Source of the DNA: Escherichia coli
GTDB lineage: Bacteria; Pseudomonadota; Gammaproteobacteria; Enterobacterales; Enterobacteriaceae
Assembly (NCBI RefSeq): GCF_003018115.1
Contig: NZ_CP027457.1
DNA: 64,000 nucleotides
Direction: 5' to 3' (one strand)
Numbering within the stretch: the stretch's first letter is position 1; each line of letters begins with the position of its first letter. Position numbers: made by a program. Positions 24,001-30,000 of the stretch are shown here, piece after piece.

Positions 24001-27000
24001 CTCATCCCGTTACCAACATGCTTTGCCCATTTCGTCAGTTGCCGTTCCGCAAGTCGTTTTAACTCACCCTGCGTCATCTGGCGCTCAATCCCTCTGGTAC
24101 GCATTTCGAGGCAGATGTGGTACAGCACAGGCTGTGGCCACGGGTATTTATCACTCCCGTCGTATCGCCAGGATTCATTGCGCCAGCGCCGGTACTCTTC
24201 CATCACGGCATCCACCGTAAGACCAAATGGATTTGCCCCACTCTCCGAAATCAGCGCAACAAACTCAGCCAGGTCCGGGGGCCACGTTTCACCCGCCCGG
24301 CAGCGGTCCATGCACTGACGACAGACCTGCCGGATTTGCTGTTCAGTCATCGCACCAATCTGGGCAATCCAGAGCTTCGAAGGTGCGGCCCCGTTCTTCT
24401 GAGTCCAGCGGTTCGAATACACCTCCCCCATAAGCTCCCACAGCTTCCAGGCCGTTTCCGTTGCTGATAAATCCGTTTTCACGTTCCCACTGTTCGCGTG
24501 CTGCCCGGATTTCCTGAACTGCCCGTGATGCCGTGCCACCTGATGCTGCATGGCTTACCCCCTTGCTGACTGGTTTTACCTGTGCCCTGACGTGCTGCAC
24601 GTGACGGGCAAATTTCTGCTCCCACTGAACCTGCGTGAAAACCTTCCCCTCCGCCATCCAGTAATCCCGGAATGCGGCAAGCTCAGCAGGTGTAAATTCC
24701 GGCTCAGGCAGAGCCATACCCCACACTGCTGCCCGTTGTCGAAAATCCGGCGACGGCTGCCAGACAGTAGTCATCGAAAATTTCCCGATCGGTTCGCTCA
24801 GGCCGTCCAGGTATTCAGGTTCGGCTGTCTGCAACGGCGCACCATTCGACTCACTGGTCGGAATACTCTCGCGCGCGTTATGTGTGGGGTTTAATTCTGT
24901 ATCTGTATCTTTATCTGTCGTGACTTGTCGTGACAGATGCGTGACACGTCGTGACTCATCGTGACAATCAGCATTATGTTTCCGCAGCTTTTCCCGCTCC
25001 CGCTGCGCTCTCTTGCGCTCTGCCGGGGATTTTGCCGTTTGCGAAACGTTACCATTGTCCTCTTTCAGCACCTGACGTTTTTCCCATCCGGAAATAAGGT
25101 CACCATCCAGAACCCGCCCCTGCATTGCATGCAAAATTGAATCAATTACGTCTTCCGTCACATCAAGCGCACTTGCTAAATCTTCCGTCGTGACATCAAT
25201 GTGACCACGTAGTGACACGCCGTGACATGTCGTGACATTTCGTGACGCGCTCACCAGAAGGTGGATATACACTGCCATCACTGTTGCGATTGGCTGTCCT
25301 GAGACCCTGGCAATAGTTCGCCACTTGGGGTCATTTGGCATGTCATGCCACAATCTGAGCCAGGCATTAGCCATACTCACCTCTTCTGATACCGAACTTT
25401 ACCCACGAACTTCCGGAAGAAATCCGGTATAAATATTGTTGGTCAATGTACAACAACAGCATTACCAGGCTGACCACCACTGTTAGTCAGGGTGCCCCAG
25501 GCGATCGCTACAGCGACAAAATCATCCACATCTTTCACCAGCCGATCCCGTCGTTCGACGATCTCCCGGTAATATTCAGAACTGTGACTGCGCATACGGG
25601 CCACCAGCAAAGGCGGCATCGCCTTTTCGATCGCCGGTAACAGCGCCTGAATTTTTTCAACAGCATCAGGCGTATCCTTCTCCACCCAGCGGAAAATTTT
25701 CTGGGTATTACGGGCCAGGGCTTCCGGATGGCTGTCGTCGTACAGTTCCGGGAACGTCATCCCCAGTTCGAAATAAGTCCGGGCTATTTCAGCTGCGGGA
25801 ACTTTCTCACCGTCCGGATATGCCCAGGCATTCATCGCCATGCGGATGTGTTCATGTTTGATTTTCATGAATCATTTTTCCTTTCGTTCGAGGTGTTATC
25901 CTTCTTTTTGTAAAGTTCTGGGTTCAACGATAGTTTTCCCTTGGAGTATGCAACTGCTTCAGCAGCCCTCCCCTTGGGAACTATTTCGCCGGGACGCTTA
26001 CGCCACATGTATATAGCTTCTCGGGTTACCCCATAAAAATCAGCGACTCTTTGGACAGAACCAAAAAACTGGACAAGTTCATCAACTCGCATTTCGCCCC
26101 CTTAAAACTAAGTATTTTTAGATTAAAGGGTAATTTTTTTTAGGTCAATACAATCTAAAATAATTTATATTCAATTCGCGGGAGAAAATAATGGAAAGCC
26201 TTGGCATTAGGCTTAAGAAACTCAGAAAAGACAAAGGGCTGACCCAAGTTGAACTTGGCAAGCTTTCTGGCGTAACTGGGGTAACAATAGGATACTGGGA
26301 GAAAGATCTAAACGAACCAGGTAGCAAAGCTCTTAGTAAATTAGCCCTAGCACTAGGCACTACTGAGTCCTATCTCCTGTATGGAGTATCATCACCTGAA
26401 TCATCCCTTGTGCAGAAAAATCCAGGTACCCAAATCCCATACCTTTCTTGGGGAGAAGCGATTTCTTTCCTAATATTAAAAGGAGAGAAAACTATGGGAA
26501 ATGTCGACAGGATCACCACATTCTTTGATGTCAAGGAGGGAGATTTTGCCGTTTCAATGCCTGATGATACTATGCACAATCCATCAGGGTCCCCAAGCAT
26601 TCCAGTTGGAGCCACAGTGATCATGAGGCCTGGCGAAAAATATAAAAATGGTAGCATCGTCGCTGTAATAGTCCCAGATCCACTCACAAACGAACCATCC
26701 ATGACTATAAAAAAATTAGTTATTGATGGAAAGCTCGTGTACTTAGCCCCCCTTAACCCACGCTATCAATCATCCTTACTTACACCGGAATGTAACATCG
26801 TTGCTGTAGCAAAAGGTGTTCAGTTCAGCCTCTAGCTCCCGCTTTGCCCTGTAATCAGAGGTCGGCTTTGCCGGCCTTTTATTTTAAAAATATTTATATT
26901 TAACTTGACGACAAAACTAAATATTCTTATATTCATTGCAACCCACCCCGCTTCACAGAATGCAGGGCAATACCTAGAGTTACCAGGCAGTGGTCAGGGG

Positions 27001-30000
27001 TTAAGTAGCCAGCCCGAGGCGTATGAACATGACGGCGGGAACACTTTGTATAACAGCGCAGCAGGTTTTTAGTTCCGCGGCCCGGCGTTAAGGGTAAATG
27101 AGGTCAACATGGATACGCTCAATCTTGGCAACAACGAATCTCTGGTATGCGGTGAGGTTGACGATGGAATTTAAAGATTTACCAGTACCATTCCAGGAAA
27201 TGGCAGCGAATATAGTTCGTTCTCAACTGGCGACTCTTGACCTGAGTACCGTAGAAAAAGAAACCATCGATAATATATCCGGTAACGTGCGTCGAACCTT
27301 TATCGGGCTGTACGAAGAAAAGTGGCCATTCGGCGGACAAAATTCGCCTGAAAACAAGAATCAAGCGAATGATGAGAAGCTGAAACACGTTATCGCCTTA
27401 CTACTGGAAGATGCAAAACGTCTACAGCAACTGGAACCAAATGCAGGCACCGAAGCCCACATCTGGATTGCCATAGAATCACTCAAATGTGAAAGCGATG
27501 ATTATTTAAAAACCATAATTAAAACAACTCAGCTTTCTGAAGAGCTACCGAAGAAATTGCCATAATAATATGTTTTTCTTATAGAGGGGTTAGAAATATG
27601 GGCCAGCATTATAGCAGCCCCATATAACAGAAAGTATTTTAAATATTACGCCGTATCTTGTGATTGTTTTTTAATATATTCATACAAGCGCACAAGTTGT
27701 TTCAACTCTTCAAAGCACATCGCGGAATTTTCAATTTTTCCGGCGTTGATTAGTGCCAGAAGAGCCTGATGTGCGCAAGCATATGGATCATTACAGGGCT
27801 AATAATATCAACTTGCATATTATCCTCCATAGAGGTTCCGGGTTAATGATGGAGACCAACACGCTGTCACGTGTGGTCGTGCGCCGGACACGGATAAGAA
27901 TCCGGCACTGACAGTTTGCTGAAAGGATATTTCCCTGAAAAGTCAGGGCATAACACGAAAGCGCACGGCGAAGTTAGTCTCTCTGTACAGGTCGTCGTTA
28001 AATGTAATTCGATCATGCGCTTCCGGTTGTGGCAATCCGCGAAATGGCGCGGCGGTAAGTATGGCTGGGGCTTCCTCCATTGCTCCAGAAAATGCACCGG
28101 GTCGTCAGGTTGACCATACGCTTAAGTGACAGCCCCGCCACAATACCCATGTGTAGTATTTGGTGGCATCAGTTCTACTCCGTGACTGCTCTGCCACCCT
28201 TTTTAAAGTGAATTTTGTGATGCGGTGAATGCGGCTATGCGCACGCGGAACAGTTAAAACCGTAAAGTGGTCTTTTACGGGGCGTAACGGGCATCCTTCT
28301 GTATTCCGGCGTTAATTGTTAACTGGTTAACGTCACCTGGAGGCACCAGGCACCGCATCACAAAATTCATTGTTGAGGACGCGATAATGGAAACGTTATT
28401 ACCAAACGTTAATACGTCTGAAGGTTGTTTTGATATTGGCGTTCTGCTCAGTAACCGGGAGTTTACGGAAGATGCCATTAAGATGAGAAAATATGAACCT
28501 TATCTTCTCAATGATAATTCCATACTTTCCAGAATTGCCCTTCTTGAACTTGGTATTATCGGAGAACAGCAGTGACTTCAGCATTTGCACTGGTGATGAC
28601 CGTTTTTCTTATAACGGGTGAGCCACAAAATGTGATTACCGGAATTTATGACAGTAAGTCATCCTGCATTCAGGTAAGGGACGAACAAAAAATCCCCGGT
28701 GAATGCCTCCCGTTAAAAAAAGTATCGCTGAACCTGAATAACGAAATACCGGCTGGATAACCAGCCAGCCATATTAACACCATACCAACGGATTAAAAAT
28801 GCCAGCAATGGCAGGGATTCGTTCACCCTGAAATCTGTAATGAGGTTAAAACAAAATGAGTAAGGTCTTTATTTGCGCTGCTATTCCTGATGAACAGGCC
28901 ATAAAAGAAGATAGCGCTGTTGCGGTGGCCACTGCCATTGAAGCCGGTGATGAGCGTCGCGCACGCGCAAAATTTCATTGGCAATTTCTGGAGCAATTCC
29001 CTGCAGCTCAGGACTGCGCTTATAAATTTATTGTCTGTGAGGATAAACCCGGCATACCCCGCCCTGCCCTCGATTCCTGGGATGCTGAATATATGCAGGA
29101 AAACCGCTGGGATGAGGAGTCTGCTTCCTTTGTCCAGGTTGAGACTGAATCAGATCCGATGAACGTCACTTTTGACAAGCTGGCCCCTGAAGTACAGAAC
29201 GCTGTCATGGTTAAGTTCGACACATGTGAAAACATCACCGTTGATATGGTTATTAGCGCACAGGAATTGTTGCAGGAAGACATGGCAACATTCGACGGAC
29301 ATATCGTTGAAGCGTTGATGAAAATGCCAGAAGTTAACGCCATGTATCCGGAACTTAAGCTGCATGCCATCGGGTGGGTTAAGCATAAATGTAAGCCTGG
29401 TGCCAAATGGCCCGAAATTCAGGCAGAGATGCGCATCTGGAAAAAACGTCGCGAAGGTGAACGCAAGGAAACCGGAAAATACACGTCTGTTGTTGATCTC
29501 GCCCGCGCCAGAACCAATCAACAACACACTGAAAATTCAACAGGAAAAATCAGCCCGGTCATTGCTGCCATTCATCGCGAATACAAGCAGACATGGAAAA
29601 CACTGGATGACGAACTGGCCTACGCTCTCTGGCCTGGTGATGTGGATGCCGGAAACATTGACGGCAGCATCCATCGCTGGGCAAAAAATGAAGTTATCGA
29701 CAACGACCGCGAAGACTGGAAGCGTATCTCGGCATCAATGCGCAAACAGCCTGATGCCCTTCGCTACGACCGCCAGACTATTTTTGGCCTTGTCCGTGAA
29801 CGTCCGATCGACATTCACAAAGACCCTGTGGCACTGAACAAATACATTACTGAATACCTGACTACAAAGGGCGTGTTTGAAGATGAAGGAAGAAATCAGA
29901 GCGCAACTGATACTCTCTCGTCGCCAGTACCAGAAACTGATGCAGTGGAAACGGCAATTCCGGACAACGAAAAAACCGAATGCAAAGTGGAAGTCGAACC

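Follow-up and report, generated by a model that had tools for sequence, protein, structure and literature searches.

A covarying leader RNA immediately downstream of pL in the N-less dicBF-type early-left operon of an Escherichia coli Stx2a prophage

How does a lambdoid prophage express its early-left operon when no N gene follows the leftward early promoter pL? This question is raised by a stretch of 64,000 nucleotides (nt) of Escherichia coli DNA (NCBI RefSeq assembly GCF_003018115.1, contig NZ_CP027457.1), analysed at its full length and hereafter called the window, in which an acidic protein of 133 residues, encoded by an open reading frame (ORF) named here ORF133, holds the place of N. 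The original prediction had proposed that antitermination is RNA-based and put-like, that it relies on a small unlisted peptide, or that ORF133 is an immunity-region moron; the unknown acidic protein at the N position, as first framed, is of modest interest alone. We found that the leader between pL and the first gene encodes a structured RNA of about 105 nt, which is almost certainly real. The locus itself is the promoter-proximal part of an N-less Qin/Rac-type dicBF early-left operon in a Stx2a prophage. What appears to be new is the widespread leader RNA, the dicBF operon type being already known. The features of the leader are the following (window coordinates):

26940-27044, plus strand: structured leader RNA element of about 105 nt (covariance models R2 and R3, 123.5 bits each)
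26942-26944 with 27037-27039, plus strand: helix P0, with three G-C pairs only in the window copy
26946-27000, plus strand: helix P1, with its invariant apex CAATACnnnGAGTTA at 26968-26982
27003-27008, plus strand: junction AAGTAG
27012-27014 with 27034-27036, plus strand: helix P2, around the conserved loop 27015-27033
27023-27091, plus strand: short leader ORF of 22 codons, or 20 from its second ATG, starting in the P2 loop and stopping in the P3 loop
27056-27095, plus strand: block GCGCAGCAGGT..AGTTCCGC and hairpin P3 (27080-27095), just upstream of the ribosome-binding site of the first gene

The element folds as a three-way junction (P0/P1/P2) closed by a terminal helix. In this closing helix, P0, the 5' end of the transcript pairs with the nucleotides just after P2, and in all lineages P0 begins 1-7 nt from the predicted transcription start; its strands vary widely (AACCC/GGGUU, GCAGCAAC/GUUGCUG, UCACU/AGUGA, AAGCA/UGCUU, GUUGAG/CUCAAC). 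P1 is a long hairpin with the invariant apex C-AAU-A-C-nnn-G-A-GUU-A, the junction has the consensus (Y)AAGUAG and the P2 loop the consensus GCAUAYGAA..., so that the element as a whole displays about 45 near-invariant unpaired nucleotides. An alternative P2 pairing GCC at 27008-10 with GGC at 27018-20 was refuted by the divergent variants, which support 27012-14 with 27034-36. Other likenesses seen by eye were unsupported and were dropped: a boxA-like reading of block 4/5, ops, a hammerhead, a tRNA-like fold, an 11-nt tetraloop receptor and mimicry of a repeat of the CRISPR (clustered regularly interspaced short palindromic repeats) type. A promoter-like site, TTCACA-17-TAGAGT (9/12 matches), is found inside P1 at 26952-26980; its TAGAGT is peculiar to the window variant, most copies having TCGAGT.

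The window copy taken by itself lends no support to such a fold, as its minimum free energy is no better than that of shuffled sequences (z = +1.26) and its P0 is reduced to three G-C pairs. With no thermodynamic support, the case for structure is therefore covariation, which was evaluated in two kinds of alignments. In an ungapped alignment anchored on the invariant apex alone, with slid partners and shuffles as controls, all 7 of the 7 variable P1 pairs show compensatory double changes, 80.8% of the cells are paired (24-41% with the partners slid) and the covariation score reaches 0.213 versus 0.117±0.009 for shuffles, a value attained by none of the 500 shuffles. Model-fitted alignments, which favour the structure by construction, give 91-92% of paired cells (26-44% when slid), covariation scores of 0.413 and 0.680 (versus 0.13-0.18) and double changes in 21 of the 25 pairs, every pair of P0 and P2 covarying. 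Cognate P0 duplexes are also more stable than non-cognate ones (-8.6 versus -6.8 kcal/mol; 0 of 20000 permutations reach the observed value), at least eight different P2 helices surround the conserved loop across lineages, and the G-U pairs assign the fold to the pL-sense strand.

The short leader ORF raises the question of whether the conserved product could be a peptide. In the canonical subfamily, GAGG-N9-AUG lies in the P2 loop, and P0 begins 7 nt beyond this AUG. Of the 110 canonical copies, 109 retain the ATG; a natural ATA variant exists (locus L108). The short ORF often stops at the ribosome-binding site of the first gene or fuses in frame to ydfA. The AUG is absent from the divergent lineages (GAAAGU.., GAACAUAC..). 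A leader-encoded peptide was rejected: indels shift the frame, the same conserved nucleotides are found in different frames and the divergent lineages have no ATG. Judged from these sequences, the short ORF is probably incidental or specific to the canonical subfamily. Downstream of the element, the block GCGCAGCAGGT..AGTTCCGC and P3 are kept in E. coli, Pectobacterium, Serratia and K-12 Qin, and the P3 stem covaries by eye (CCCC/GGGG, GCCG/CGGC, GCC/GGC, GCCAG/CUGGC). The loop of the P3 hairpin is GGCGTTAA (window 27056-27095; locus L004, 2470-2500), and block and P3 hold the place that nutL has in the Arsenophonus copies.

How far does this leader extend beyond the window? Among heteroimmune prophages, homology begins exactly at the predicted transcription start: promoters and operators differ and the leader is conserved. 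An exact-match scan of IMG/VR retrieved at least 120 loci, in which the element stands behind at least 10 types of promoter/operator and before several different first genes (ydfA, ydaG, kil or nutL-N). These contexts show the element to be a module of its own, tied neither to immunity nor to N. Of 5426 complete E. coli genomes, 3751 (about 69%) contain its core, with up to 7 copies per genome, and no annotated feature lies under it in any record inspected (none among the 12 E. coli rows listed). The K-12 Rac prophage carries a copy between racR and ydaG (NC_000913, about 1419511-1419619, minus strand). Further carriers, from a scan limited to one genome for each species, were Arsenophonus (many copies), Pectobacterium, Prodigiosinella, Serratia and Superficieibacter. 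The genes behind the element in Pectobacterium and Prodigiosinella are one Kil-like and one YdfD-like, without N, and boxA comes after the element in many non-E. coli lineages.

The element is also found in lytic phages. The leader stretch of a K11-type IMG/VR variant (L176), comprising the element and its flanks, has BLAST similarity in 416 phage records, mostly of Klebsiella, and boxA lies downstream of the element in the K11-type IMG/VR loci. In KpV763 (Przondovirus), the sole record inspected, the first early promoter annotated at the left genome end is directly trailed by the element, with a second promoter and the gene 0.3/0.7 region downstream. Phage T7 itself gave a weak partial match (12.4 bits, E 0.42) and none with R3 at E<=0.01. 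In the T7 A1 leader (locus L322, 526-594), AUAAGUAG-ACA-GCCUG...CGAAAAA-CAGGU resembles the junction and P2 of the element; this leader, which lacks the P1 apex motif and a significant model score, may be a degenerate relative. The arrangement recalls the T7-type leader running from A1-A3 to boxA: the homolog of K11/KP32-type phages stands directly behind the first host-polymerase promoter, and additional promoters, boxA and the gene 0.3 region come after it. These phages differ from the window prophage in being lytic and without repressor, and T7 provides just the weak partial match. The element is a leader RNA made by the host polymerase in the immediate-early phase and common to temperate lambdoid and lytic T7-like phages.

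Is this RNA a form of put? In HK022, put is a factor-independent antiterminator RNA (putL and putR) of about 70 nt, made of two adjacent hairpins. The put consensus comprises two stem-loops with a conserved core GAACGGC...GGAUGA..CAAU, and put suppresses terminators in cis in dependence on the zinc-binding domain of the beta-prime subunit. HK022 also carries nun, a gene of the N family. In both systems, a structured RNA directly follows pL in a lambdoid phage that makes no use of N, and helices lie on either side of conserved unpaired nucleotides; as the element does in some of its lineages, put coexists with a gene of the N family. They differ in that no similarity of sequence or structure exists between the put hairpins of about 70 nt and the three-way junction of about 105 nt with its terminal helix, and in that the window element has no second copy behind pR. 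A put covariance model (R1) built from seven put RNAs had no hit in either leader of the window, pL or pR (E<=10, filters off), and the leader models R2 and R3 found nothing in HK022, HK639, phiEt88 and other put loci, so that homology to put was ruled out by searches in both directions. The RNA-based antitermination of put type that had been suggested for this leader is therefore half right: the leader does contain a conserved, covarying RNA, which is unrelated to put.

Known RNA families did not account for the element either. No match of Rfam 15 fell on the leader, at E<=10 in 26925-27115 or at E<=1 in 25000-29000, and no relevant match was found in four loci with K11-type or AT-rich variants; as Rfam gave no match on the put region of HK022, its negative is uninformative about put. 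The small RNAs AgvB, AsxR and Pas were discarded as candidates, having no Rfam matches here and being placed by their papers near pR' and not pL. A literature search, of incomplete coverage, returned no paper containing the sequence strings of the element, and the leader RNA is apparently undescribed so far.

The position of the element depends on the assignment of pL, for which the following features were considered:

25865-26092, minus strand: Cro-like gene, divergent from the repressor gene
26191-26835, plus strand: cI-type repressor of 214 residues with helix-turn-helix and S24 peptidase domains (RefSeq LexA family; PHROG 4, E 1.1e-30)
26857-26879, plus strand: hairpin resembling an intrinsic terminator and ending the repressor transcript (10-bp stem with 6 GC pairs, then TATTTT)
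26885-26933, plus strand: pL and its operators (-35 at 26905-26910, -10 at 26928-26933)

On the rightward side, a YdaT/CII-like gene is overlapped by cro. The reading of a repressor gene closed by a terminator was borne out by the hairpin and its T run. TTGACG-17-TATATT (26905-26933) is the top sigma-70 match of the region in a promoter scan (10/12). The operator motif AAACTAANTATTNTTA occurs exactly in its spacer (26914-26929) and in the intergenic region between cI and cro that holds oR (26105-26120), with a third copy bearing 2 mismatches at 26885-26900; the window has 11 matches to this motif versus 4.3 expected, and none of 100 shuffles reaches 11. Since operator copies are shared by the pL spacer and oR, the predicted pL/oL assignment, already made from the similarity between the two, is sound.

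Could an N gene or a nut site have been overlooked? Eight of the roughly 18 small plus-strand ORFs in 26930-28860 were scanned against PHROG profiles, and none of these eight, lying between pL and dicB, had an N-like match; as positive controls, the N-like ORFs of Arsenophonus matched phrog_271 (E 3.8e-17 and 3.6e-13). A tblastn search of all frames of 26930-28860 with three N proteins (lambda N, an Arsenophonus N and the N of 933W) gave a best hit of only E 0.28 in the interval from pL to dicB. A hidden N or N-like small ORF was thereby rejected, in agreement with what had been noticed from the sequence. N proteins diverge fast, so this negative covers recognisable homologs and an unrecognisable analogue is possible. 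One candidate, a 52-residue ORF with a GTG start (27753-27911) and an Arg-rich C-terminus, had no PHROG match; it overlaps, by eye, a hairpin region of the DicF precursor conserved in K-12. The search for nut sites proposed for the leader and for 27570-28380 returned no boxA near pL. With up to 2 mismatches, GCTCTTTAACA has 16 matches in the window versus 15 expected, none of them within 17300-32700 on the relevant strands near pL or pR, and the window has no nut site of lambda type, in which a CGCTCTTTAACA-like boxA precedes a boxB hairpin in the transcripts from pL and pR. The element shares with the lambda system its genomic position, the first place of the pL transcript, and a true boxA lies directly downstream of it in Arsenophonus and several other lineages; unlike lambda, the window has no N homolog, boxA or boxB, and the element occurs both with and without nut. 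The leader element is not a nut site.

The operon behind the leader, in which the order is pL, structured leader, truncated ydfA, ORF133, DicF, dicB, ydfD, exonuclease, xis and int, comprises:

27109-27174, plus strand: ydfA (DUF1391) remnant of 21 codons, truncated and frameshifted (alignment with strain EH41; PHROG 751 and 37620)
27164-27565, plus strand: ORF133, acidic accessory protein of 133 residues
28148-28199, plus strand: small RNA DicF (Rfam RF00039, 62 bits versus a gathering score of 48)
28162-28198, plus strand: DicF terminator hairpin (fold, then U run)
28387-28575, plus strand: dicB (RefSeq annotation; PHROGs 1251 and 1092 for the dicB/ydfD-like pair)
28572-28760, plus strand: ydfD-like DUF1482 gene (RefSeq annotation; same two PHROGs for the pair)
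28856-32745, plus strand: distal part of the operon, with an 823-residue exonuclease, excisionase and integrase, adjoining potC
31389-31658, plus strand: excisionase (xis)
31627-32745, plus strand: integrase (int)

With an operator-bearing promoter, a ydfA remnant, DicF and its terminator, dicB and a DUF1482 gene, this operon matches the gene set published for the dicBF operon of K-12 Qin (PMC10448788). Both have a repressor-controlled promoter, ydfA, DicF with its terminator, dicB and ydfD; Qin differs in having ydfB/ydfC at the place of ORF133, and the window in its truncated ydfA and in belonging to a complete-looking Stx2a phage. With the kil operon of K-12 Rac, the window shares the leader element (in the racR-ydaG gap of Rac). 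In Rac (locus L163, 1906-2003), RefSeq places a small RNA, KilS, upstream of kilR, a position equivalent to that of DicF and dicB, so that the Rac and dicBF operon types run parallel beyond the leader. The spacer between DicF and dicB (28197-28419) contains an STnc100-like match below threshold (36.8 bits versus a gathering score of 47, E 1.3e-5), which includes the motif CACCTGGAGGCACCAGGCACC; the same sequence occurs in K-12 Qin.

The prophage carries upstream of the early-left region:

15716-15985, minus strand: stx2B
15997-16956, minus strand: stx2A
17047-17298: three tRNA genes
17442-18263: Q-type antiterminator of 273 residues

Given stx2a, the three tRNA genes and the Q-type antiterminator, the prophage is a Stx2a phage; its insertion adjoins potC and, compared with K-12 Qin, it is complete-looking. 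The 1551 bp queried at 26850-28400 are 100% identical to prophages of the Shiga toxin-producing E. coli strains O91:H21 FWSEC0008, O113:H21 FWSEC0010, RM10466 and others. A full match to the small RNA STnc100 (15427-15641, 160 bits) lies downstream of stx2B; STnc100 and PasD have been linked as relatives in a 2026 preprint. A ParD/ParE toxin-antitoxin pair is encoded at 20106-20668 on the plus strand, inside the rightward (minus-strand) early/delayed-early region, and the chromosomal part of the window has an Rfam match to naRNA4 (CssrE) at 50736-50804 (60.8 versus a gathering score of 59.5).

What, then, of the protein that first drew attention? ORF133, noted as the first ORF after pL, is the first intact one; the ydfA remnant (27109-27174) and the short leader ORF precede it. 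Compared with strain EH41, whose DUF1391 gene is intact, a deletion of 109 bp produced this remnant, which overlaps the start of ORF133 and whose first 15-17 residues match PHROG 751 and 37620. Where ydfA is intact, in relatives, ORF133 comes second, behind it, at the position of ydfB/ydfC, and most prophages sharing the leader and the remaining operon do without it, having ydfB/ydfC or other cassettes instead. Its acidity and lack of an arginine-rich motif were confirmed (isoelectric point 4.98, net charge -6, at most 4 K/R per 15 residues versus 7 in lambda N). It belongs to PHROG 1363 (unknown function); of its 272 homologs, the 120 listed are unnamed or 'hypothetical' and nearly all from Escherichia. 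In their alignment, residues 1-53 are conserved, and the C-terminal half is exchangeable. The homology and structure predictions that had been called for gave no match in Pfam, to a PHROG of assigned function or to a known fold: the AlphaFold model has a predicted local distance difference test score of 61 overall and about 80 for residues 1-50 (a helical hairpin), and Foldseek against the PDB returned nothing below E 1. In lambda, rexAB shares the transcript of cI and precedes the terminator. ORF133 lies after the repressor terminator and downstream of pL; it therefore does not hold the rexAB position that the moron proposal assumed, and it would be repressed in the lysogen. No separate promoter-like site stands directly upstream of it, the sole candidate being the 9/12 site inside the leader. 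That ORF133 might be a non-canonical protein antiterminator or, alternatively, a phage-exclusion moron could be argued from its place as first intact ORF and from its strongly conserved N-terminal part in a PHROG of unknown function, but its composition, its absence from most prophages with the same leader and operon, the lack of any Pfam, PHROG-function or fold match with a low-confidence model, and its expected repression in the lysogen, unlike rexAB, make this very improbable. ORF133 is accessory cargo in a known operon type, not an antiterminator or an N substitute. On the minus strand at 27646-27846, a frameshift or stop interrupts, in the window, an antisense ORF of 57 residues that is annotated in EH41 (MQVDIISPV...QSQDTA); close upstream of this ORF, the AT-rich stretch after ORF133 contains a promoter-like TTAACC-16-GATAAT (27846-27819).

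What might the element do? Because it stands at the putL position, because the DicF terminator lies in the path of the transcript and because boxA follows the element in many lineages, we tentatively propose that it engages the host machinery of transcription elongation or termination, which we regard as possible rather than probable. The leader RNA would act through its fold and not by coding, binding a conserved host component (RNA polymerase, a Nus factor or Rho, for instance), and the immediate-early transcripts could then pass the long leader and the DicF terminator to reach dicB, exonuclease, xis and int without N. Such an action might take place in cis only, like that of put, or also in trans. 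Consistent with this role, the element immediately follows pL in an N-less operon, as putL follows an early promoter, the DicF intrinsic terminator stands between pL and exonuclease, xis and int, and the stretch from pR to Q has no surplus of intrinsic terminators, the last point being equally in line with a stabiliser (see below). Several observations weigh against it in addition to the lack of any likeness to put. The element is present once in the window, with no second copy behind pR. It is missing from K-12 Qin, which shares just the final 40 nt or so of the leader, and, by BLAST, from phage mEp460, and both have the same operon, which can therefore do without it. In Arsenophonus, it is followed by canonical boxA, boxB and boxC and an N-like gene, so that it is not a simple substitute for N. 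In KpV763, the first of several early promoters alone is trailed by the element, which fits a role in trans or through dosage equally well or better. The coexistence with N and nut, the absence from Qin and mEp460 and the restriction to the first promoter in T7-like phages keep both a trans-acting RNA and a stabiliser alive.

The main rival is a trans-acting immediate-early RNA (decoy, sponge or inhibitor), released by cleavage from the front of the first early transcript and aimed at some host factor that Enterobacterales have in common, be it a defence system, a ribonuclease or Rho. Such an RNA would explain why P0 joins the triphosphate-bearing 5' end with the 3' end of the domain, an arrangement known from free-standing RNAs, why A/U-rich linkers follow, why the module is independent of the downstream content, why lytic T7-like phages have it behind the first early promoter only and why the loop sequences are near-invariant across genera. 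We nevertheless consider it somewhat unlikely, as neither a terminator nor a defined 3' end comes after the element, which has no known target and is kept under repressor control in defective prophages, where it would rarely be made. The element could also be a 5' module for stabilisation or processing, opposing 5'-end-dependent decay while the DicF terminator leaks and the remaining operon is translated. P0 starting within 1-7 nt of the predicted transcription start in all lineages and a simple 5' hairpin at the same place in K-12 Qin would suit such a module, as would the K-12 dicBF operon, which yields terminated (1146 nt) and read-through (1608 nt) transcripts with no known factor (PMC10448788); a stabiliser needs neither some 45 near-invariant unpaired nucleotides nor a three-way junction kept from E. 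coli prophages to Klebsiella podoviruses, and we judge it unlikely. More improbable still is a sensor, of riboswitch type or responsive to a protein, gating early-left expression, for example by control of a short upstream ORF, and hence of the access of Rho, through the P2 loop with its ATG and its GAGG resembling a ribosome-binding site. The covarying helices around highly conserved junctions and loops would suit a sensor of riboswitch type, and in the canonical subfamily the conserved GAGG-N9-AUG, the spacing of P0 after it and the frequent ending of the ORF at the ribosome-binding site of the first gene, or its fusion to ydfA, point the same way; this sequence is conserved in that subfamily only, the divergent lineages lack the AUG so that the ORF is not a feature of the family, the ORF has merely 6-9 codons in several lineages, and no terminator or other terminator/antiterminator expression platform comes after the element.

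Taken more broadly than the elongation/termination reading, the element may be a new class of phage immediate-early RNA that reprograms or disarms a conserved host machine by means of its tertiary fold, be it an antitermination RNA of RNA polymerase unrelated to put or a trans inhibitor of a host factor or defence; we give this a little less than an even chance. Early expression in N-less lambdoid phages is usually explained by a guessed "put-like RNA", as for phage LLS (Genome Research 2025; PMC12315714), and the window, with a conserved structured RNA unrelated to put at the putL position, makes this guess testable. The element is very common, in E. coli genomes, Stx2a prophages and Klebsiella podoviruses of therapeutic type, and has no Rfam family. 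Its copy in K-12 Rac, between racR and ydaG, would sit there silently, and it allows the function to be addressed directly by standard genetics. If the element does control early transcription, it would bear on the induction and excision of Shiga-toxin prophages, on the silencing of the toxic cryptic-prophage genes kilR and dicB, and on early gene expression and genome entry of T7-like phages.

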